From: a virus
Length of the DNA: 64,000 nt
IMG/VR virus record: IMGVR_UViG_3300042889_002115
Span: 1 to 64,000 of that record
Reading direction: 5' to 3' (one strand)
The position numbers and the translations under genes were made by a program. The notes beneath the pieces were generated by a model. The model did no database searches. It was not told the DNA's origin and was given only the letters and a program-made list of their open reading frames with translations. Below, piece after piece: positions 16,824-28,015 of this stretch. Positions within the stretch are counted from its first letter, which is position 1. Every line of letters starts with the position of its first letter.

Positions 16824-17177
16824 ATGAACATTATATTTGGAGACTCAATCAATCAAATTCCCAACAGTTTTACTGTGCTGGAACTGGACACATTCCGTAT
16901 GATCAACGAAGGTCGTAACGCCACCGCATATTGCGTGATTGAAAAAATTCCCTTGACTGATTTTGACAAGCTGACAGCCTACAAAAAAGTACATAGTGAT
17001 CTCCTGGAGAACTATCGCAGACGCGAATGGACCTATTGTGAGCATGCTATTGAAGGCCTTATGGGCAAGTGGAACAACGAACTAGATTCTTTTTATTCTG
17101 ACCTGTTGTTACGAGTACAGACATATCGTCAAAATCCCCCTGGAGACGAATGGGATGGCACTAGAGTCAAGATTTAA
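16824..17177 (+). CDS. Hypothetical protein, possible TPR-like helical domain
   Basis: AAGGA RBS; YRRREW...PPGDEWDG pattern resembles the C-terminal module of some class III adenylate cyclases. Confidence 0.5.
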   Translation: MNIIFGDSINQIPNSFTVLELDTFRMINEGRNATAYCVIEKIPLTDFDKLTAYKKVHSDLLENYRRREWTYCEHAIEGLMGKWNNELDSFYSDLLLRVQTYRQNPPGDEWDGTRVKI

Positions 17178-18456
17178 CGTTAGAATGTTTTAGTAATTCT
17201 TTTGTTCTTTCATATTGTGCCAGAGTCGCCCAGGATGGCCTCCATTGAGGATGGTATTTAGATTCTAAATATTGAAATTTAATTCCGGTTGTGTAATTGT
17301 TCATTTCTGTAATTCCTTGATTTAAATTTTGTTGATATTCAAGAATAACCTGTTGTTGAAATTCTTTACTAAAGAATCTTTTGTGATTGTGTTCGCATAC
17401 TTCTTGCATTTTTTTATACATGATTTCTTTTTGTGCGCCTGGCATAGTTGCAATTGATTTCATTAGATCAACAATTGCAACAAGCCTTTGTGCTGGATCC
17501 TGAATATTGTCATAATCTTCGTCGATAATATTCTCAAATGTCTGAAAGCCGTAACTTTGCAAATATGCTAGACTTCCTGGTGTAGATACCAAAATAAACG
17601 GCTGTCCACAAGCTATTGGTCTCAATATTTTTTCAGTAAGATGCCATCTAGTGTCGTCAAACAATGTTTCTAAAACAATTTCTATGCCGCATGTTTGATA
17701 ATCCTCACCTGCATAATCAGCGCTGGCTGAGCTTGGTGTTAAGTTGTTTTCAAAGAAATCTTCAAGATCAAATCTTGAAATAGACAACGTGGGATTTTTG
17801 AATTGATGAGATTGATAATGGTAATTTTGATCTGTATCACTGAATGACATCTTGCATTTTTCAGCCAGATCATAGTTAACGATTAACTCAGTAAACCTTA
17901 ACCGATATTCCCTGACCCCAGACCAAGCTCTGTTATACACCAGGAAGTCTTTTGTTATTGATTTGTTTTTTAATAACGGGTCTATTTCTGCGTATCTGAA
18001 CCAGTCTCTTGCAATAATAGCATGACTCCAGAGATACACCGGAACAAACTCATTAGATTGATATTTTAAAACCTCGTTACTATTTTTTTCTGAGTGTAAT
18101 ATTAAGGTACGGTCATAAACAGATGGTGGTCCTATTATACGTAACATGAATTCTTTAGCTGTTTTTGAGCTGGTCTCCATGTAAATTTCAAACTCGGGGG
18201 AGTTTGTAGTAAATGGGCAAGAATTTTTTATAAAATTGATTATGTCAGATTCTGAATAGTAATTGTAATCCAATGGTTCTTGATCGTGACATATCATGGC
18301 AGGAATGTTGGGCCACAAATCTGATTTGTCGTAACTTTTTAACATGGTTAGATTGTTGAGATTTCTTGAGCCATGAGGATTCCAACGATAAATTAATAAG
18401 TTATGATTACTGATGCTGTCTAAAAAATTGTATAATCTATCTAAAGGAATTGACAT
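17167..18456 (-). CDS. Putative glycosyltransferase-like protein
   Basis: C-terminal IEIVLET...HLTEKILRPIACGQPF...GFQTF motif reminiscent of GT10/GT-B donor-binding region; AT-rich. Confidence 0.45.
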   Translation of the reverse strand: MSIPLDRLYNFLDSISNHNLLIYRWNPHGSRNLNNLTMLKSYDKSDLWPNIPAMICHDQEPLDYNYYSESDIINFIKNSCPFTTNSPEFEIYMETSSKTAKEFMLRIIGPPSVYDRTLILHSEKNSNEVLKYQSNEFVPVYLWSHAIIARDWFRYAEIDPLLKNKSITKDFLVYNRAWSGVREYRLRFTELIVNYDLAEKCKMSFSDTDQNYHYQSHQFKNPTLSISRFDLEDFFENNLTPSSASADYAGEDYQTCGIEIVLETLFDDTRWHLTEKILRPIACGQPFILVSTPGSLAYLQSYGFQTFENIIDEDYDNIQDPAQRLVAIVDLMKSIATMPGAQKEIMYKKMQEVCEHNHKRFFSKEFQQQVILEYQQNLNQGITEMNNYTTGIKFQYLESKYHPQWRPSWATLAQYERTKELLKHSNVKS

Positions 18457-18459
18457 CGA

Positions 18460-19710
18460 ATGAAAAATGTTGGATTTATTGGTCTCGGCAAGTTAGGGCT
18501 TGAATGTGCCGAAGTGTTTGCTGAATATTATACTGTGTACGGATATGATATTTACCCAAGATCAAGTGACCTTGTTAAAGTTTGCGATGTGCAGCAAGTA
18601 ATAGAATCATGTGAATGGATTTTTGTGGCAGTGCCTACTCCGCATGCTGACGGTTATGACGGATCAGTTCCGTCAAGCCACATGTGTCCGCAAGATTTTG
18701 GTCACCACGCGGTAATTGATGCGCTGGAAAAAATCAATGCCTATGCTGACTCTCCAAAAAAAGTTGTGCTGATCAGCACAGTGCTTCCTGGTACTACTAG
18801 AAAACACTTTGCAACACTATTAGATCCCAAACACACATTCTTATATAACCCCTATCTTATTGCCATGGGATCGGTTAAGTGGGACATGGTCAACCCTGAG
18901 ATGGTCATGATTGGTTCAGACACCGGAGCAGGCACAGAAATACAGGAACTAGTGGAGTTATATCAGTCCATGATGAAAAATTCGCCACGCTATGTGACAG
19001 GCACCTGGGAAGAATGTGAAGCTATTAAGATCTTCTACAATACATTTATTTCAGCCAAAGTGGGCATAGTAAACATGATTCAAGACTTTGCGGTCAAGAT
19101 TGGTAACATCAATGTGGATGTGGTTACCGATGCACTGGCTGCCAGCACCATGCGGATCATGGGACCTAAATACATGACCGCGGGCATGGGCGATGCAGGT
19201 GCTTGCCATCCGCGTGACAACATTGCTCTACGCTGGTTGGCCAAAGAATACAATATTGGCTATGACTTGTTTGACACCATCATGCGGGCTCGAGAACAGC
19301 AAGCTCGCAACCTTGCTCAGTTTTTGTTTGACACTGCACTACAGGATGGAAAGGCTTTTGGTCTTTTGCCCATAGTGATTCATGGCAAAGCCTACAAGCC
19401 CAACGTGCCTTACTGTATTGGCAGCTACAGCACCTTGGTTGGACACTACTTGAAAGAGCTAGGAGTCCTGGTTAAATATGTTGACCCATTGGCAGATGAC
19501 CGCACAGATTGTGTAACATCGTTTGATCAGCCAGCAGTGATTCTTATGGCACACAATCGCAACATCACATATGGCTACACAGGTGTACAAGCAACAGATC
19601 CAGACTACTTTGAATTTGTTCAAGGCAGCATCATTGTTGATCCGTTCCGACAAGAAGCAAATCGAACAGGCATGACAGTAATACATTATGGCAACACACG
19701 CAGTCTCTAA
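18460..19710 (+). CDS. UDP-glucose/GDP-mannose dehydrogenase family protein
   Basis: IGLGKLG Rossmann motif, FVAVPTP, ISTVLPGTT, IKIFYNTF, GACHPRD catalytic Cys, GKAYKPN. Confidence 0.92.
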   Translation: MKNVGFIGLGKLGLECAEVFAEYYTVYGYDIYPRSSDLVKVCDVQQVIESCEWIFVAVPTPHADGYDGSVPSSHMCPQDFGHHAVIDALEKINAYADSPKKVVLISTVLPGTTRKHFATLLDPKHTFLYNPYLIAMGSVKWDMVNPEMVMIGSDTGAGTEIQELVELYQSMMKNSPRYVTGTWEECEAIKIFYNTFISAKVGIVNMIQDFAVKIGNINVDVVTDALAASTMRIMGPKYMTAGMGDAGACHPRDNIALRWLAKEYNIGYDLFDTIMRAREQQARNLAQFLFDTALQDGKAFGLLPIVIHGKAYKPNVPYCIGSYSTLVGHYLKELGVLVKYVDPLADDRTDCVTSFDQPAVILMAHNRNITYGYTGVQATDPDYFEFVQGSIIVDPFRQEANRTGMTVIHYGNTRSL

Positions 19711-20212
19711 ATATCATATTCCTGCATTTTGGGATGATGAATTCCTGGACCTTGAATATATCAATGAAACATTCAACGACAATGAATCAATTGAACATTG
19801 GTTGGCACAAGGATTTTCAAGCAAGTTCACAGGCGACATGTGCGACATGCGTAGTGCACAACCCAGCTGGAACCAAACTATCATTGAAGTGTTCACCCAG
19901 CTGGGATGGCAAGATATTGGCACCAGTTACTACAGAATGATGCCAGGAACAATTTTGCCCACACACCAAGATCTTTACAAAAAATACATTGACATATTTG
20001 ATCTGCAAGGTCAGGAACACACCATTTGCCGAGCTGTGATATTTTTACAGGATTGGCAACCTGGACACTACTTGGAGGCCATGGACGAACCTGTGGTCAA
20101 GTGGCGTGCGGGTGATGTGATAGAATGGTGTTATGACACTCCACACATGGCAGCCAACATGGGTGCCACAGTCAGGTACACGTTACAAGTTACTGGACAT
20201 GTGCCCAAATGA
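19688..20212 (+). CDS. 2OG-Fe(II) oxygenase / cupin-fold hydroxylase
   Basis: MMPGTILPTHQD (HxD) ... TPHMAAN.G...RYTLQVTG. Confidence 0.7.
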   Translation: MATHAVSKYHIPAFWDDEFLDLEYINETFNDNESIEHWLAQGFSSKFTGDMCDMRSAQPSWNQTIIEVFTQLGWQDIGTSYYRMMPGTILPTHQDLYKKYIDIFDLQGQEHTICRAVIFLQDWQPGHYLEAMDEPVVKWRAGDVIEWCYDTPHMAANMGATVRYTLQVTGHVPK

Positions 20213-21132
20213 TCTCCAGCTACAACGAATACAGCACACTAAAACGCATTGTGGTAGGTGACGCTGCCTATGCCAACTGGCCCACAAAGGATCCTGTGTT
20301 TAGATCCGAAGCTGAACGCACACTGTGGAAACATACACCATTACCCAGCGGACCAGTGCCCGAGCACATTATACAGGAAACCAATCAAGACCTACAAGGC
20401 TTGTGCAGCATTTTGACCATGCATGGTGTGGAAGTTGTGCGTCCCAGTACATTTGACTTTCAAACCCATGATGGGCTGTACAACTATTGCCCACGTGATC
20501 GATTTATTGTGTATGGTTCTATCATAATTGATCCTGCCATGATGTATCCTTGCCGTGATCAAGAATACCAGTGTTATATAGACATACTTGAAGATGCTGA
20601 TCAGATCATTCACATGCCTCGAGACTCAGGTATGGTGCTGGACGCTGCTAATGTGCTGAGAGTAGATCAGCACCGATGGTTATTTTTGGAATCTGCTAGC
20701 GGCAATCGAGCTGCTTACGAGTGGCTATGTGCACAATTGCCCGAGGTAGATATTGAACTGTGTAACTTTTATTCTGGAGTACATATTGATTCAACAATAG
20801 TGGCACTGAATGCAGATCAATTTGTTGTTAATGGCAGCAGACTAGATCGGAATAGAAAAGATCTACCACGACATCTCAAGGGAAAAGAGATATTTTTTGT
20901 TGAAGAAGTAATAGCGCAAGGATTTTACGAATATCCGTATGCATCAAAATGGATTGCACTCAACATGTTGAGCATTGATCCTAAAACCGTCATAGTTGAT
21001 GCCAAACAGGAAGCCATGATACAGGCGCTAGAACAAGGTATGGGCATGACGGTTATACCCCTGGAACTGCGTCACAGCAGGACTCTAGGCGGGGGATTCC
21101 ACTGTGTAACGCTTGATTTGGTACGATGTTAA
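20209..21132 (+). CDS. Amidinotransferase (glycine/inosamine-phosphate amidinotransferase family)
   Basis: SYNEYSTLKRIVVG, YCPRD, DAANVLR, HIDST, NMLSIDP, LGGGFHCVTLD (Asp-His-Cys triad). Confidence 0.9.
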   Translation: MISSYNEYSTLKRIVVGDAAYANWPTKDPVFRSEAERTLWKHTPLPSGPVPEHIIQETNQDLQGLCSILTMHGVEVVRPSTFDFQTHDGLYNYCPRDRFIVYGSIIIDPAMMYPCRDQEYQCYIDILEDADQIIHMPRDSGMVLDAANVLRVDQHRWLFLESASGNRAAYEWLCAQLPEVDIELCNFYSGVHIDSTIVALNADQFVVNGSRLDRNRKDLPRHLKGKEIFFVEEVIAQGFYEYPYASKWIALNMLSIDPKTVIVDAKQEAMIQALEQGMGMTVIPLELRHSRTLGGGFHCVTLDLVRC

Positions 21133-21453: not shown

Positions 21454-21482
21454 TTGACATTATTCCAGATGTGTTGTATAAT
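21454..21482 (+). promoter_or_regulatory. Sigma70-type promoter giving probable leaderless uvsE mRNA
   Basis: TTGACA-17-TATAAT, ATG 7 nt downstream of the -10. Confidence 0.8.
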
Positions 21483-21488
21483 ACAAGC

Positions 21489-22517
21489 ATGATTACACCT
21501 AAGATTGGTTTTTGTTGCAAATGGCTAAATGATCCGAGCGAATGTGGCGGCATGAAAGTCAATGCAGTGGACCGTGAACTAAACGGCCGATCAACCACCA
21601 TGCGCTGGCTTCGCGAACATGCAGACGAAGCTGAACAACGGCAATGGGACATAATGAATCACAATGCTGCCGCAGCAGTAAAAATGATTGAACGAGTGGC
21701 CACGCTACCTCCCGAACGCAGAATGGTGCGCCTGGGTAGTGAAATGCTGCAAGGATATACTGAAGCCAGCTGGATTGACTGGTGGCAGCGAACAGAGATA
21801 CAAGATCATCTGGCCCGTATTTTTGCTCCTGTTGGCGAAACTGCCCGCAGACTGGGTGTGCGACTCAGCTTCCATCCCGGACAGTTCTGTGTGCTGGCCA
21901 GTGAGTCGGATGAAATTGTAGAACGCAGTATCCTGGAATTTGAGTATCATGCAGACATGGCCCGTTGGATGGGCTATGGAAAAACCTGGCATGATCATGG
22001 TTTTAAAATCAACGTACATTTGTCGGGTAAAGGTGGTCCCGACAAGTTTTTGCGCACACTGGGTCGACTGACTCCTGAAGCGCGAAATCTAATTACCATC
22101 GAGAATGATGAGATGACAAATGGGATTGATACTACTTTGCTTGTGGCTGAGCATGTTGCTCTTGTGCTGGATGTACACCACCACTGGATCAACTCGGGGG
22201 AATACATCACCCCCACTGACTCTCGTACAATGCGGGTTATTGAGTCTTGGCGTGGTCAGCGTCCTGCTCTTCACTACTCTGTTAGTCGTGAAGATATTTT
22301 GGTTGGGCATGATCGAAGCGTTCGACCAGACCTTTCTGAACTTCTTGATCGAGGTTTTAAAAAGCAAAAGCTCCGCGCACATAGTGACTTCATGTGGAAT
22401 GATGCCTGCAACAAATGGGTAGTGGGGTTTGCTGACAATTTTGACATTCAGTGCGAAGCCAAGGGCAAGAATCTAGCATCCATGCAGGTGTACGAGCACT
22501 ACAAACAACTAGCATGA
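21489..22517 (+). CDS. uvsE: UV damage endonuclease (UvsE/UVDE)
   Basis: IGFCCKW, RLGSE, RLSFHPGQFCVL, INVH, ITIENDE, LDVHHH, LHYS, RAHSD, EAKGKN. Confidence 0.92.
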   Translation: MITPKIGFCCKWLNDPSECGGMKVNAVDRELNGRSTTMRWLREHADEAEQRQWDIMNHNAAAAVKMIERVATLPPERRMVRLGSEMLQGYTEASWIDWWQRTEIQDHLARIFAPVGETARRLGVRLSFHPGQFCVLASESDEIVERSILEFEYHADMARWMGYGKTWHDHGFKINVHLSGKGGPDKFLRTLGRLTPEARNLITIENDEMTNGIDTTLLVAEHVALVLDVHHHWINSGEYITPTDSRTMRVIESWRGQRPALHYSVSREDILVGHDRSVRPDLSELLDRGFKKQKLRAHSDFMWNDACNKWVVGFADNFDIQCEAKGKNLASMQVYEHYKQLA

Positions 22518-22804
22518 ACATAATTCTCAAAGATATTTTTACCTGGATACATGATGATTACAAAACTAACAGATTCCGTTTTGTCGTGGAAGTACTTGCT
22601 TGGGCTATCAGTATTGGCTGTAGCATTACGATGGCTGCCACTGTACCCACTCCCCCTTTACTTGCTATGTATCCTATTTGGATTCTTGGTTGTGCTATGT
22701 ACGCTTGGGCTAGTTGGACTCGCAAATCGTTTGGTATGTTGGCTAACTACATCCTGCTGGTGACCATTGACAGTGTTGGCTTGATCAGGATGCTGACACA
22801 ATAA
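22514..22804 (+). CDS. Small three-TM membrane protein
   Basis: ATGA overlap with uvsE; three hydrophobic helices. Confidence 0.65.
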   Translation: MNIILKDIFTWIHDDYKTNRFRFVVEVLAWAISIGCSITMAATVPTPPLLAMYPIWILGCAMYAWASWTRKSFGMLANYILLVTIDSVGLIRMLTQ

Positions 22805-22828: not shown

Positions 22829-23323
22829 TCAGCTGCCGCAACCTACCAATTTACAGTATTTGACAAATTCGTAGGTTCCCCATATGGTTCCCAATACCAT
22901 TATTATTAGCAGTGTTGCTAGTAATACTGTTTCTATTAGATCTTCAAGTTCTTTTTTGTGACGGGCTGCTGCTTCTTTTTCACGACGAATAGCATGTGCT
23001 TCATCCGCATCCATGGCAGCGGAGCGTGATTTGATCTTGTTCCAGACGTCTACCTTGCCTGCTTGCATGAACAGCAGTTGCAACTCGTCTTCAAATCGTT
23101 TGGCCTGATCCAGAGCCATCTCAATCTGGATGGCTGTGCCCATACTGGATTTTTTACCACTGTTTTTGGATTCCACCATGGCCTTGGATGCAGTGCTCTT
23201 GGCGTCAAAGTATTTGCCCAGCACTGGTCCCAAGGACGCTACATCGTCCACAGTCTTGGATACTTTTTTAATCAATGCAACAGCAGCTTGTATGCCGGCC
23301 AGTGCGGTTAGCGGATCAATCAT
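22829..23323 (-). CDS. Hypothetical protein with C-terminal TM helix
   Basis: MIDPLTALAG start typical of phage ORFs; coiled region then TM. Confidence 0.7.
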   Translation of the reverse strand: MIDPLTALAGIQAAVALIKKVSKTVDDVASLGPVLGKYFDAKSTASKAMVESKNSGKKSSMGTAIQIEMALDQAKRFEDELQLLFMQAGKVDVWNKIKSRSAAMDADEAHAIRREKEAAARHKKELEDLIETVLLATLLIIMVLGTIWGTYEFVKYCKLVGCGS

Positions 23324-23556
23324 TTTAGTTCTTTTCTTCCTTCTAATTTACATATTTCTTTGTGCAATCGATTGGAGCAATCTTTCTTTTGCCATTCCAC
23401 GCAAACTACTCGACGATCATATACATCGCCCGTCCAGGTCCATCTAACACATGCCCATGTGTAGTCCGTGGCTTTTTCAGTATCTTTTTTGGTTTGAGCA
23501 CCTGAATTCAACATGCCCAAACATACCACAACAATAAACACCACAGTTTTGATCAC
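23320..23556 (-). CDS. Small secreted Cys-containing protein
   Basis: Signal-peptide-like N-terminus; CVRWTWTGD...CVEW; TAAATA upstream at 23574-23579. Confidence 0.6.
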   Translation of the reverse strand: MIKTVVFIVVVCLGMLNSGAQTKKDTEKATDYTWACVRWTWTGDVYDRRVVCVEWQKKDCSNRLHKEICKLEGRKELK

Positions 23557-23647: not shown

Positions 23648-23681
23648 GTGTAACAAAACTGTAATATTTGGTTGTTAAATA
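23648..23681 (+). promoter_or_regulatory. Pho-box-like direct repeat with -10/late element upstream of pstS
   Basis: GTGTAAC-AAAA-CTGTAAT (11-nt period), 10 nt, TAAATA. Confidence 0.65.
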
Positions 23682-23703
23682 AATGTACTAACAAGGAGAC
23701 TTT

Positions 23704-24705
23704 ATGAAACGATTTATCACAATGCTGCTGGCAGCAGTAGCAGTCACAGCTCACGCAGACATCACAGGTGCTGGTGCAACATTCCCCTACCCTATCTATG
23801 CCAAGTGGGCAGAAGCCTACAAGAAAGAAACCGGTATTGGACTCAACTATCAGTCAATTGGCAGTTCAGGTGGTATACGCCAGATCAACAACAAAACAGT
23901 GACATTTGGTGCCAGCGATGCTCCTGTGGCAGGTGCTGAACTAGACAAGCTAGCTCAAGTACAGTTTCCCGCTATCATTGGCGGCACAGTGCCTATCGTG
24001 AACTTGGAAGGGTTTAAACCTGGAGAATTGCGTATCACTGGGCAAGTATTAGCCGAAGTGTTCTTGGGTGATATCACTCGATGGAATGACGCTAAACTAG
24101 CAGCATTGAATCCTGGTAAGAAATTGCCCGATCAACCGATCACAGTGGTTCATCGTGCTGACGGATCAGGCACAACATTCAACTGGACTGACTACTTGAC
24201 TGTGGCCAGCCCAGACTGGGCCAAGCGTGTGGGTCGTGGTGCAGCAATTAAATGGCCTGCTGTGAGCAGTATTGGTGGCAAAGGCAACGAAGGTGTTGCA
24301 GCCATTGTGAATCGTACTAAGGGCGGTATTGGTTATGTTGAGTATGCTTATGTAAAGAAAAATAACATGACCTTTATGCAACTACAAAACAAAAATGGTA
24401 AGTTTGTCAGTCCTGATGATGTGACATTTGCAGCCGCAGCCGCAGGGGCTGATTGGTTCAGTGTGCCGGGCATGGGCTTGAGCATCGTGGATCAAAAGGG
24501 CGATGCTGTGTGGCCAGTAACCACTGCCAGCTTTATCATCATGTACAAGAATCCAGAAGATAAAAAATCTTCAGCCGAAGTGCTCAAGTTTTTTGACTGG
24601 GCATTCCGCAATGGCAAGAAGGATGCTGCTGACCTTGACTATGTGTCATTGCCAGACAGCTTGACTCGACAAATTCGTGAACGAGTTTGGACACAAATCA
24701 AATAA
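23704..24705 (+). CDS. pstS: Phosphate ABC transporter substrate-binding protein PstS
   Basis: Signal peptide; ITGAGATFPYP, YQSIGSSGG, FGASD, HRADGSGTT, GKGNEGVA, IGYVEYAY. Confidence 0.97.
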   Translation: MKRFITMLLAAVAVTAHADITGAGATFPYPIYAKWAEAYKKETGIGLNYQSIGSSGGIRQINNKTVTFGASDAPVAGAELDKLAQVQFPAIIGGTVPIVNLEGFKPGELRITGQVLAEVFLGDITRWNDAKLAALNPGKKLPDQPITVVHRADGSGTTFNWTDYLTVASPDWAKRVGRGAAIKWPAVSSIGGKGNEGVAAIVNRTKGGIGYVEYAYVKKNNMTFMQLQNKNGKFVSPDDVTFAAAAAGADWFSVPGMGLSIVDQKGDAVWPVTTASFIIMYKNPEDKKSSAEVLKFFDWAFRNGKKDAADLDYVSLPDSLTRQIRERVWTQIK

Positions 24706-24751
24706 ACCGGCCGCAAAATTGAGCGGAAGCTGGAACTCGTAACCAGTACTA

Positions 24752-24772
24752 AGGGCCGCAAGGCTCTTTTTT
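24752..24772 (+). terminator. Rho-independent terminator after pstS
   Basis: AGGGCC-GCAA-GGCTCT followed by T-run. Confidence 0.8.
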
Positions 24773-24774
24773 AT

Positions 24775-24809
24775 TTGTAACACAAGTGTAATCAAACAGG
24801 TTGTAAATA
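24775..24809 (+). promoter_or_regulatory. Pho-box-like direct repeat with -10/late element upstream of plcP
   Basis: TTGTAAC-ACAA-GTGTAAT (11-nt period), 11 nt, TAAATA; same layout as pstS site. Confidence 0.65.
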
Positions 24810-24813
24810 CACC

Positions 24814-25698
24814 ATGCAAAAGACTTATCGATCTATTTTTATCAGTGATGTGCATTTGGGCACCCGAGACTGTCAGGCCGGCAAGTTAAACAACTTTCTC
24901 AAACACAACACCTGCGAAACCTTGTACCTGGTAGGGGACATACTAGATGTGTGGCGCATACAACAAAACAAATGGCGTTGGAAGCAGAGTCATACCAATG
25001 TGGTTCGCCGCATACTGGGACATGCCAAACGCGGCACCAGAGTGATATATGTGGCTGGAAATCATGATGAATTCTTGAGACCGCTCATGCAGTACGGCAT
25101 CAACTTTGGCAATGTGGAAGTGGTCAATCAATGTGAACACATTGGAGTAGATACCAAACATTACCTAGTCACACACGGCGACCTGTTTGATGGCATCACA
25201 CGTCTAGCGCCCTGGATTGCTTTCTTGGGAGACAAAGCCTATGATTTTGTGCTTGGTCTCAACAGCAAGTTCAATTGGATCCGCCATCGCATGGGATTTG
25301 GTTACTGGAGTTTGAGTAAATATCTCAAGGGCCGTGTTAAAAAAGCAGTGGACTTTATATTTCAATTTGAAAAAAATCTAGCAACCTACTGCAACAAGCG
25401 TGGCTATGATGGTGTGATTTGTGGTCATATTCACCATGCAGAAATCAAACTGATAGACGGCATTGTGTACATGAATGATGGCGACTGGGTAGAATCATGT
25501 ACAGCACTGGTAGAGCACCACACAGGCCAGTGGGAAATTGTTACCTGGACCAAGGAGAGTGATGATGTGGATCTTGATACTGATAGCAACACACATAAAC
25601 GACCCCGCCGATCAGCCAGGACGAATAGAGATACAGTTTCCCAACCAACAGAGTTGCGAGCAGGCTCTAAACACAGTCAAGTGGCAGTTAAAGTTTAA
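24814..25698 (+). CDS. plcP: PlcP-type phospholipase C (LpxH-like metallophosphoesterase)
   Basis: IFISDVHLG, LYLVGDI, YVAGNHDE, THGDLFD, LGDKAYD, YWSLSKYLK, ICGHIHHA, NDGDWVESCTALVE; adjacent GT4 gene. Confidence 0.8.
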   Translation: MQKTYRSIFISDVHLGTRDCQAGKLNNFLKHNTCETLYLVGDILDVWRIQQNKWRWKQSHTNVVRRILGHAKRGTRVIYVAGNHDEFLRPLMQYGINFGNVEVVNQCEHIGVDTKHYLVTHGDLFDGITRLAPWIAFLGDKAYDFVLGLNSKFNWIRHRMGFGYWSLSKYLKGRVKKAVDFIFQFEKNLATYCNKRGYDGVICGHIHHAEIKLIDGIVYMNDGDWVESCTALVEHHTGQWEIVTWTKESDDVDLDTDSNTHKRPRRSARTNRDTVSQPTELRAGSKHSQVAVKV

Positions 25699-25741
25699 AA
25701 GTTTCAAGGTAGTGAGCGAATGCAAAAAACCATCCTTATAG
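25562..25741 (+). CDS. Small protein overlapping plcP 3' end and GT start
   Basis: AAGGAG RBS; MMWILILIA...FPNQQSCEQAL...SECKK. Confidence 0.6.
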   Translation: MMWILILIATHINDPADQPGRIEIQFPNQQSCEQALNTVKWQLKFKSFKVVSECKKPSL

Positions 25742-26727
25742 TCACAGACAACCTATATGACCAAATCAACGGTGTGGTTACGACCTACAAAAATATTGAA
25801 GCGTGTGCGGTTCGCGACAACTATCGTGTTGTATATCTTGATCCCGGGCGGTTCCGCTATGTTGATTGCCCTGGCTACAACGAAGTCAAGATTGCCTTTC
25901 CCCGGAAAGTGGGCGCGATACTTGAGGAGATCCGTCCGGATTATATCCACATCGCCACCGAGGGTCCTGTGGGTCTGCGTGTTAGACAATATCTTGACAA
26001 ACACGGTTATCGCTATAATACTGCTTACCATACTAAGTTTCCAGAAGGACTTAAAAAACTATTTGGAATTCCTGAAGCCATTACTTGGCCTCTAGTGCGC
26101 TGGTTCCACAAGCATTCGGGCAAGGTATTGACCACCACAGAGTCCATGGTTCAAGAACTACGGGCACACGGCTTTGACGGAGATATTGTTCCTTGGACTC
26201 GTGGTGTTGATCGTGAGATATTCAATCCTGAATCCAGAGAACCACACCAGGACACTGTGCTGGTTTGTGTGTCAAGAGTCAGCAAAGAAAAGAACCTGGA
26301 AGCATTTTGCAGCTTGGCCTACCCAGGGGCAAAAAAAATCTTAGTAGGCGATGGGCCGCATCGAGCAGAACTTCAAGAACAGTATCCTGATGTTGAGTTT
26401 GTGGGATTCAAACGAGGAATTGCTCTGGCCTGGTACTATGCCAATGCTGATGTGTTTGTGTTTCCAAGCCGCTGGGAAACATTTGGCATTGTAATGATTG
26501 AAGCCATGGCCTGTGGTACGCCAGTAGCAGCTTATCCTTGCCAAGGACCTGAAGATGTTGTGGACCCTGGGGTTACTGGTTGTCTCAACGAAGATCTATC
26601 ACAGGCCATAACAGACTGTTTGGCTCTGGACAGAAACACCGTTGTCAAAGGCAGTGAACACTGGAGTTGGGAACAGGCCTGGGTCATATTCCGAGACAAC
26701 CTAGTTGAAGCCAGGCATAAAAGTTAA
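25720..26727 (+). CDS. GT4 glycosyltransferase, Agt-type diacylglycerol glycosyltransferase
   Basis: IVTD...QINGVVTT, HIATEGPVG, TAYHTKFPE, RWFH, WTRGVD, SRVSKEKN, VGDGP, VFPSRWETFGIVMIEAMACGTPV. Confidence 0.85.
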   Translation: MQKTILIVTDNLYDQINGVVTTYKNIEACAVRDNYRVVYLDPGRFRYVDCPGYNEVKIAFPRKVGAILEEIRPDYIHIATEGPVGLRVRQYLDKHGYRYNTAYHTKFPEGLKKLFGIPEAITWPLVRWFHKHSGKVLTTTESMVQELRAHGFDGDIVPWTRGVDREIFNPESREPHQDTVLVCVSRVSKEKNLEAFCSLAYPGAKKILVGDGPHRAELQEQYPDVEFVGFKRGIALAWYYANADVFVFPSRWETFGIVMIEAMACGTPVAAYPCQGPEDVVDPGVTGCLNEDLSQAITDCLALDRNTVVKGSEHWSWEQAWVIFRDNLVEARHKS

Positions 26728-26732
26728 TCAGC

Positions 26733-27458
26733 TCAAACTGAATTTTGCGGCTGTCTTGTGGTCACAGTTGCTAGTCCCACTGATCTAAGCACAGTAATAT
26801 ACATCCACCCTATGTCAAACTCAAACCAACGACGGCTCAGTCGAGGGTTAGCAGGATCCAGATGATGGTTATTATGAAGACACTCCCCACCAATAATAAT
26901 ACCCCAAGGCATAAGATTTCTACTGTGATCTTTGGTTTTGCCATTTCTGTATCCTATCCAGTGTCCTACTCCGTTGACTACACCTGCTGCCCAGAACGGT
27001 ATCCAGATCATTTGTATGCCCCAAATCAGCAGCCCCCACCAGCCAAACACAATTATGTTGAACACAAAGAGAATGCCAATGCCAAGTCTACTGTGAGCAG
27101 TGTATACGTTGTGCTCCATCCAATCAGCAGGAGTGCCAGCACCGTATGAATCAACCATGACTTTATCTTTGCTTGCTGCATGATATAACATTGCTCCCTG
27201 AAACAACACCTGCCAAATACCATACACATGTGGTGTATGCGGATCGCCTTGCTGGTCACTAAATCTATGATGCTTGCGATGGATTGCAACCCATTGTTTG
27301 GTGACCATGCCTGTGGTCAACCACAACCAGGCTCGCATGGCATGACTAATCACGGGATGAAAAGTCACGCCACGGTGTGCTTGGCCACGGTGCAAAAACA
27401 AAGTCACGCACACTATGGTAATGTGCGTGACTATCAAGGTGTAAATTAAATATGTCAT
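26733..27458 (-). CDS. Membrane fatty acid (acyl-CoA delta-9-type) desaturase
   Basis: His boxes HRGQAH, HRKHH, HNNHH; GDPHTP; FEFDIGW; start at MTYLIY (TAATG coupling). Confidence 0.92.
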   Translation of the reverse strand: MTYLIYTLIVTHITIVCVTLFLHRGQAHRGVTFHPVISHAMRAWLWLTTGMVTKQWVAIHRKHHRFSDQQGDPHTPHVYGIWQVLFQGAMLYHAASKDKVMVDSYGAGTPADWMEHNVYTAHSRLGIGILFVFNIIVFGWWGLLIWGIQMIWIPFWAAGVVNGVGHWIGYRNGKTKDHSRNLMPWGIIIGGECLHNNHHLDPANPRLSRRWFEFDIGWMYITVLRSVGLATVTTRQPQNSV

Positions 27459-28015
27459 TACATACTTAGCGGTGCCCACAGCCATAGGCCTTGACTCATG
27501 AGCACCAGACCTAGTGCTCCTACTCCTATTGATCCCCAATACATACGCATGTTAACTGCTAAGATACTAGCACTCAACAACACGATTGCCAGCTGAAACA
27601 GCATGCCTGAAAAGTTTAACCAAGGACTATGTAGTCTAGCTTCGTCTCTTGCAGCTTCCTGTGCTCGTGCTTTGACCAATAACTCTTTCTTACCTTCGCC
27701 TGTGTCAGGTTCTGATTCGTAGCGATCAATCTTGGCTTCCAGCTTGGCTACACGTTCTTTGTTGCCTGCCAGTCGTGCTTCTTCCAGTTGCCCTTCGGCT
27801 AGAGTTTGTTTGATTGATTTGGACTGATAAAATCCGTAGGTGTTAGATGCCTTCAGCAGATTGGTTTGTGCTACACTGCTGAAGTTGTTGGCAATATAGG
27901 TGTTGGCTGCCAGGAACAGGGCCATGAAAACAATTACCAGGCCTGCTCGGTCTTTGATTTGTGCTTCACGTTCTGAACGTGAGAGTGGCTTTGCTTCTTT
28001 GATTTCTTCTGCCAT
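27458..28015 (-). CDS. Membrane protein (DUF4337-like TM-coiled coil-TM-TM)
   Basis: FYQSKSIKQ, LFQLAIVLLSASIL patterns. Confidence 0.6.
   Translation of the reverse strand: MAEEIKEAKPLSRSEREAQIKDRAGLVIVFMALFLAANTYIANNFSSVAQTNLLKASNTYGFYQSKSIKQTLAEGQLEEARLAGNKERVAKLEAKIDRYESEPDTGEGKKELLVKARAQEAARDEARLHSPWLNFSGMLFQLAIVLLSASILAVNMRMYWGSIGVGALGLVLMSQGLWLWAPLSM

Follow-up and report, generated by a model that had tools for sequence, protein, structure and literature searches.

A lake phage module homologous to the bacterial plcP-agt lipid-renovation operon, with a candidate role in phosphate stress

A pstS-plcP-agt locus in a phage contig

We analysed a stretch of 64,000 nucleotides (the window), bases 1-64000 of the 98,929 bp IMG/VR virus contig IMGVR_UViG_3300042889_002115. 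It carries pstS, a gene for a PlcP-type metallophosphoesterase (plcP) and a gene for an Agt-like glycosyltransferase of family GT4 (agt) in tandem. We put at roughly two in three the probability that this locus is a phage phosphate-stress auxiliary metabolic module, in which a homologue of the plcP-agt operon, used by bacteria for PhoB-controlled lipid renovation, adjoins a phage pstS. The features of the locus are listed below with window coordinates, strand and, in brackets, their basis.

23649..23665, plus strand: Pho-box-like direct repeat TGTAAC-N5-TGTAAT before pstS (pattern search)
23676..23681, plus strand: TAAATA, -10-like element of the pstS promoter, 10 nt past the repeat (sequence reading)
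23693-23698, plus strand: AAGGAG before pstS (sequence reading)
23704..24705, plus strand: pstS, periplasmic phosphate-binding protein (NF008171, TIGR00975, signal peptide)
24751..24775, plus strand: intrinsic-terminator-like hairpin and T run 3' of pstS (7-pair stem, GCAA loop)
24776..24792, plus strand: Pho-box-like direct repeat TGTAAC-N5-TGTAAT before plcP (pattern search)
24804..24809, plus strand: TAAATA, -10-like element 11 nt past the repeat and 4 nt before the plcP ATG (sequence reading)
24814..25698, plus strand: plcP, PlcP-type (LpxH-like) metallophosphoesterase, predicted phospholipase C (Pfam Metallophos, trees, fold)
25720..26727, plus strand: agt-like GT4, predicted diacylglycerol glucosyl/glucuronosyl transferase (Pfam Glycos_transf_1, Glyco_transf_4)
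26733..27458, minus strand: DesA-type membrane fatty-acid desaturase (open reading frame extends to a TTG at 27539; likely ATG at 27458)
27458..28015, minus strand: DUF4337 membrane protein, directly upstream of the desaturase in its unit (PF14235, 104 bits)

The pstS product passes the PstS equivalog model NF008171 (397 bits vs a cut-off of 339), scores 365 bits against TIGR00975 and has a cleavable signal peptide, cut between AHA and D.

The phosphoesterase groups with PlcP rather than LpxH

The product of 24814-25698 is a calcineurin-like phosphoesterase (Pfam Metallophos). It misses the cut-offs of both equivalog models for LpxH, UDP-2,3-diacylglucosamine diphosphatase (43 bits vs 134 for NF003743, 30 bits vs 190 for TIGR01854). 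In all five bacterial genomes studied that have a PlcP homologue (38-56 bits), another locus encodes a true LpxH (213-332 bits); in its LpxH-model score the phage protein resembles the former. A FastTree phylogeny was built from 151 sequences, with the LpxH of E. coli and five further true LpxH proteins as the root. In it LpxH is separated from all other sequences by a branch with 100% support, and the window protein falls into a clade made up of 63 viral sequences (100%). LpxH is likewise set apart with 100% support in an IQ-TREE phylogeny of 58 sequences under the C20 mixture model, where the viral clade lies between the gammaproteobacterial PlcPs, including those of Pseudomonas, and the alpha/beta-proteobacterial ones. 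The closest stand-ins for characterised enzymes in the PlcP tree are three homologues from the genus Pseudomonas (L118, L139 and L159).

The metallophosphoesterase motifs DxH, GDxxD, GNHD, HGD and GHxH are intact in the window protein, and all residues that are invariant in a 40-sequence alignment (D12, H14, D42, D45, N83, H84, D85, H121, H205 and H207) are present. Its AlphaFold model (predicted local distance difference test, pLDDT, 82) consists of a phosphoesterase core and a two-helix cap insertion at residues 127-195. The top 23 PDB matches in a fold search are all LpxH, at 16-22% identity, and such an LpxH-like fold with a helical cap fits a lipid-acting paralogue of LpxH. The protein thus shares with LpxH the fold with its helical lipid-binding cap and the metal-binding motifs, but differs from it in that it belongs to another clade, stays below the LpxH models and, in a sequence search of the PDB, has no match at E below 0.01, solved LpxH chains included.

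Phage PlcP is 45-57% identical to bacterial PlcPs; validated PlcPs share only 46-47% identity with each other (PMC8528852). The gene neighbourhood, with a GT4 gene starting 21 nt downstream and the direct repeat 22 nt upstream, has the layout found in bacteria (PMC4796936). By its sequence the phosphoesterase is a PlcP and not an LpxH, with a predicted phospholipase C activity. This agrees with a preliminary description of the locus, which had taken the protein for a PlcP. The C-terminal tail (residues 250-294; 25561-25698) is basic and modelled with low confidence (pLDDT about 50), and most of the distant homologues align to residues 3-247 only.

The glycosyltransferase belongs to the plcP-adjacent Agt group

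The 335-aa product of 25720-26727 contains the domains PF00534, PF13692 and PF13439 of a GT-B GT4 enzyme. A GT4 homologue 38-47% identical to it is found directly 3' of plcP and on the same strand in about 52/80 bacterial loci, and such a plcP-agt arrangement has been described (PMC4796936, PMC13691135). The plcP neighbour is the clear best match of the phage GT4 in 3/5 bacterial genomes; in G006 and G009 it and a second paralogue have nearly the same score (207-280 bits), and no other GT4 of the five genomes exceeds 87 bits. The phage and the bacterial GT4s fall on opposite sides of one branch, which has 100% support.

Key residues of the SAR11 enzyme GTcp (334 aa) have been mapped by mutagenesis, the mutated positions being His104, Gly82/85, Arg190, Lys195, Thr257, Phe258, Gly259, Glu264 and Asp256 (PMC8231724). 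The equivalents H104, G82, G85, R186, K191, T254, F255, G256 and E261 are kept in 31/31 phage copies, and the phage GT4 retains the motifs RVxxEKN and FPSxx[D/E]TFG as well as the final Glu. Thus the placement of the GT4 in the plcP-adjacent Agt/GTcp group, as first suggested, is supported by its best or near-best matches in the five genomes and by the kept GTcp residues, and the enzyme is predicted to glycosylate diacylglycerol.

Pho-box-like repeats precede pstS and plcP

The pattern TGTAAY-N5-TGTAAY has exactly two matches in the window, against 0.06 expected by chance, and exactly two in the whole 98.9-kb record: one before pstS and one before plcP. The repeat period is 11 nt at both sites, and the distance from the repeat to a TAAATA element is 10 nt for pstS and 11 nt for plcP. 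The terminator-like hairpin with its T run stands between pstS and the second site. A third TGTAAA before plcP (24802) follows after 15 nt rather than 11 and overlaps the TAAATA. In the whole record, 23/50 occurrences of TAAATA lie within 60 nt 5' of a gene start, where about 2 would be expected, an enrichment which indicates that TAAATA is probably a general -10-like element of this phage genome. As a promoter-like element it is reminiscent of T4-type late promoters.

The sites are conserved. A repeat of the form TGTAAY or TGTCAY precedes plcP in 55/82 phage loci, and a homologous repeat precedes pstS in 12/14 related phage loci. Among these relatives TGTAAY and the canonical TGTCAY interchange at the same place, and the spacing to TAAATA is kept. 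The strict pattern occurs upstream of plcP in 1/80 bacterial loci, so the phage sites were not simply carried over with the gene.

The published Pho-box consensus is CTGTCAT-N4-CTGTCAT (PMC8528852). The phage sites have the corresponding layout of direct repeats with an 11-nt period, placed 10-11 nt before a -10-like element. In E. coli pho promoters the Pho box stands in place of the -35 element. Thus the TGTAA repeats of 11-nt period that had been noticed before both pstS and plcP prove to be specific to these two positions and conserved in relatives, and we regard them as candidate PhoB sites. The record, which covers an estimated 29% of the genome, encodes no PhoB-type response regulator. 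Finally, the plcP ATG follows the TAAATA by 4-5 nt (24804-24816) with no Shine-Dalgarno sequence, an arrangement kept across relatives (L005-L084), which suggests a leaderless plcP mRNA.

The plcP-transferase pair is widespread in phages from lakes

At least 585 IMG/VR contigs carry a relative of the PlcP. In the best 80 viral relatives, on contigs of up to 524 kb, PlcP is 74-91% identical to the window protein, and an exhaustive search of cluster representatives returned nothing above 55% PlcP identity outside the phage group, which indicates that plcP is old in this phage lineage. The survey of the gene pair in viral records also showed that plcP is followed by a glycosyltransferase gene in 76 of these 80 loci; the other four contigs mostly end past plcP. 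In 31 loci the partner is a GT4 and in 45 it is a GT2, a 238-aa GT2/GT21-like protein (e.g. L012:4766-5482). The latter has no homologue in 80 bacterial plcP loci, and in the protein atlas it carries generic GT2 names only and has mostly viral nearest clusters. The phage lineage has therefore swapped one transferase for an unrelated one while the pairing with plcP was kept, and we take this as the strongest indirect evidence that the product of PlcP is glycosylated. In 14 of the 80 loci pstS lies upstream of plcP.

The genes are under purifying selection. Ratios of non-synonymous to synonymous substitution rates (dN/dS) against relatives are 0.03-0.2 overall (0.03-0.06 for plcP, about 0.1 for pstS and 0.12-0.2 for GT4), which are rough figures, dS being saturated (above 1).

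We also considered the integrity of the locus. In two lake metagenomes, which date from different years, error-free unitigs have equal depth over the flanks and the module (about 62-69x in X1, 5-9x in X7), and flanking phage genes (uvdE and ugd) recur by the module in three other viral loci (L070, L074 and L080). Both observations make mis-assembly very unlikely. The segment 21400-29100 was found in 22 DNA runs, every one of them labelled lake water metagenome, with 43-95% of the sampled words present. Two lake metatranscriptomes contain contigs that are 90-95% alike over parts of pstS, plcP, GT4 and the desaturase gene; these contigs come from relatives, may include DNA and give neither starts nor levels, and are not counted here as proof of expression.

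The record itself is of phage origin. It encodes tail-fibre, baseplate-wedge and virion-structural proteins, a DNA ligase, a clamp loader and Lon/ClpX-like proteases, and its CheckV completeness of 29% implies a full genome of roughly 340 kb. Judged by the clamp loader, the closest isolates are Pseudomonas jumbo phages of the PA5oct group (52% identity), followed by jumbo phages of Sinorhizobium, Salicola and Agrobacterium. The best bacterial PlcP matches point to no single host, with Alpha-, Beta- and Gammaproteobacteria at similar identity, and the 64-kb window holds no tRNA genes. A Gram-negative proteobacterial host is likely, to judge from the PstS signal peptide, the relatives of the phage and the affinities of the genes.

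The desaturase is part of a separate unit

The desaturase open reading frame converges on the GT4 gene, with 5 nt between the two stop codons. Its product has the His boxes HRGQAH, HRKHH and HNNHH, scores 44 bits against PF00487 and lies below the DesA-family equivalog NF049918 (384 bits vs a cut-off of 400), covering model positions 7-246 of 385. With three His boxes and partial coverage of the model, it appears to be a shortened DesA relative. Translation probably starts at the ATG at 27458, which shares bases with the stop codon of the DUF4337 gene, and this assigns the desaturase to a minus-strand unit of orf517, orf195, orf156, DUF4337 and desaturase. The preliminary description had combined all four genes into one Pho-box-controlled module. 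The tandem of pstS, plcP and agt and the converging position of the desaturase stand, but the desaturase has to be taken out of the controlled set, being a separate unit that lacks the repeat.

Of the 80 related loci, 18 have a homologous desaturase within the fetched plcP flanks, and in some of these the gene comes straight after GT4 in the same orientation; DUF4337 also occurs near plcP in four loci (L032, L040, L041 and L046). Gene linkage is what suggests a role of the desaturase in membrane fluidity. Elsewhere in the record (G000 72294-75289; L085:8294-11289) there are four tandem genes for proteins of about 240-260 aa, three of which pass Pfam FA_desaturase; the record thus has at least four desaturase genes in total. 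A perfect 14-pair hairpin with a T-rich run (27402-27432, minus strand) lies inside the 5' coding sequence of the desaturase, past the DUF4337 stop codon, and could serve to attenuate or partly terminate transcription between the two genes.

Comparison with known systems

PhoB-regulated plcP-agt operons are known from S. meliloti (SMc00171), Phaeobacter MED193, SAR11 HTCC7211, P. aeruginosa (PA3219-PA3218) and B. cenocepacia (BCAL2364-2365) (PMC4796936, PMC8528852, PMC13691135). The phage locus resembles them in the two protein families, the gene order and strand, the upstream Pho-box-type site and the catalytic residues. It differs in that the phage copies form clades of their own (at most 57% identical to bacterial proteins for PlcP and 47% for GT4), dagK is absent, pstS adjoins on the 5' side and has a copy of the site to itself, the -10-like element of the promoter is the TAAATA of the phage and plcP appears to be leaderless.

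The pstS and phoA auxiliary genes of cyanophages are induced through the host PhoB via Pho boxes. Common to those phages and the one studied here are pstS and the principle of a phage-borne Pho-regulon gene under the phosphate-starvation regulator of the host, which in the present case is predicted from the repeats. The difference is that here the regulon would reach membrane lipid turnover, in a jumbo myovirus related to PA5oct. Two isolated phages have PlcP homologues, both annotated as LpxH: that of Pelagibacter phage Mosig (MT647606) is 48% identical and encoded head to head with pstS, and that of Synechococcus phage S-SRM01 (MW015081) is 37% identical. Unlike in the window, no glycosyltransferase gene adjoins either of them. 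We found no literature that treats the Mosig or S-SRM01 genes as PlcP, nor any on a phage-encoded PlcP, a PlcP-Agt pair or viral lipid remodelling, in a search that left most subscription journals outside.

Proposed role and alternative explanations

In the model that we infer, which covers the binding of PhoB, what the enzymes do and a selective benefit that lies in phosphorus supply, the phosphorylated PhoB of a phosphate-starved Gram-negative host would bind both repeats at the -35 position, 10-11 nt before TAAATA, and would turn on pstS and, separately, plcP together with agt. PstS would increase the capture of phosphate through the PstCAB transporter of the host. PlcP would cut the phosphate head groups from host phospholipids, yielding diacylglycerol and a phospho-alcohol, the phosphorus of which would feed the synthesis of a genome of roughly 340 kb (by arithmetic about 6.8 x 10^5 P atoms per copy). 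Agt would glycosylate the diacylglycerol with a UDP-sugar, which would keep the bilayer intact up to lysis. The adjacent acyl-lipid desaturase of Delta9 type, transcribed separately and outside the control of the repeat, would probably alter host lipids as well.

Several points weigh against this model. The Asp of the GTcp His-Asp dyad (Asp256) is a Glu in the window GT4, as it is in 28/31 phage copies and in 9/57 bacterial plcP neighbours. In the record fragment no phosphatase was identified that could recover phosphate from the phospho-alcohols. The desaturase, as described above, is encoded on the opposite strand and has no Pho-box repeat, and the dN/dS figures are affected by saturation. 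The link to characterised PlcP and Agt enzymes runs through synteny, literature criteria and relatives at the genus level (Pseudomonas). Moreover, the repeats were compared with a published consensus that may not be that of the host, and another regulator could bind them.

This last point leads to an alternative that we consider improbable, namely that the repeats are operators of a phage regulator or timing elements of a phage promoter class, so that expression is set by the course of infection and not by phosphate status. It would agree with TAAATA being a general promoter-like element in this genome and with the near absence of the strict pattern from bacterial plcP loci (one in 80). It fits poorly with a pattern that stands solely before two genes of Pho-regulon type in 98.9 kb, with the canonical TGTCAY-N5-TGTCAY at the same place in relatives and with the lack of a PhoB-type response regulator in the fragment at hand. 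It is also conceivable, if unlikely, that the lipids are remodelled for a benefit other than phosphorus, such as a block to superinfection, less grazing, or lipid for a phage-built compartment or for lysis timing. Two reports describe altered phage attachment and grazer susceptibility in lipid-remodelled bacteria (PMC9938194, PMC9457565), and the four desaturase genes of the record suggest an interest in lipids wider than phosphorus. Set against this are the Pho-box-like control sites that plcP has in common with pstS, and the position of the module beside pstS both here and in other phages, including the pelagiphage Mosig.

Two further explanations carry much less weight. We regard it as very unlikely that the phosphoesterase is an LpxH-type lipid A enzyme and that the GT4 modifies lipopolysaccharide or a surface glycan and so alters the phage receptor. 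The homologues are annotated as LpxH at the source and the fold is LpxH-like, but the scores are far under the LpxH cut-offs, LpxH forms a separate clade with full support, bacteria hold both proteins, solved LpxH chains are not matched by sequence at the threshold given, and the GT4 is specific to the plcP-adjacent Agt group. Bacterial homologues exist for all four genes, which is what would be expected of host DNA joined to the phage by mis-assembly or mis-binning. We give this next to no credence: no bacterial PlcP above 57% identity was found whereas the viral copies reach 74-91%, the flanking genes uvdE and ugd recur by the module in other viral loci, the linkage within the module is repeated on numerous independent viral contigs, and unitig depth is uniform over flanks and module. 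The proviso in the preliminary description that the block might be mis-assembled host DNA can therefore be dropped.

If the module acts as the phosphate-stress model predicts, it would add an internal source of phosphorus, the host membrane, to the known phage phosphate genes pstS, phoA and phoH, which act on uptake, and would extend auxiliary metabolic genes to the exchange of head groups in bacterial membrane lipids. It would also change how phosphorus limitation, burst size and lipid biomarkers such as glycolipid to phospholipid ratios are read in lakes. The phage plcP genes, which are common in lake viromes, are routinely mislabelled as LpxH, and surveys of viral metabolism consequently miss them. 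The phage genes moreover offer compact variants of PlcP and Agt for biochemistry. A broader proposal, for which we see odds slightly short of even, is that a lake jumbo-phage lineage has long kept a host-type starvation regulon, consisting of PlcP with either GT4 or a phage-invented GT2 and up to four desaturases, that might turn infected cells into largely phospholipid-free virocells and move membrane phosphorus into virions at ecosystem scale.

Neighbouring genes

The same record contains phoH, a classic phage marker of phosphate stress (G000 77145-77762, minus strand; L085:13145-13762; PF02562, 240 bits). A gene for a UvdE-type UV damage endonuclease (21471-22517; PF03851, 103 bits) adjoins the module. 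The ugd gene (18460-19710), of the UDP-glucose/GDP-mannose dehydrogenase family, lies within 17167-21132 among unannotated neighbours and is syntenic with pstS-plcP in four viral loci (L056, L070, L074 and L080). A UDP-glucose dehydrogenase could supply UDP-glucuronate to an Agt-type enzyme but may serve another sugar pathway, and 18460-19710 sits in a gene cluster other than that of agt.

Three small genes close to the module have no family match. The 117-aa open reading frame at 22451-22804 co-occurs 3' of the desaturase in L007, L016, L068 and L071 (46-47% identity) and in L030 (79%), which makes it a further conserved companion of the module. The 164-aa protein encoded at 22829-23323 (minus strand, divergent from pstS; without a Pfam or NCBIfam match) has a homologue of 30% identity in the pelagiphage Mosig (L001:7699-8148), about 1 kb 3' of plcP. 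Finally, a 78-aa open reading frame with its own TAAATA (23320-23556, minus strand) occupies the 380-nt gap 5' of pstS, and its product has a signal-peptide-like start and several cysteines.

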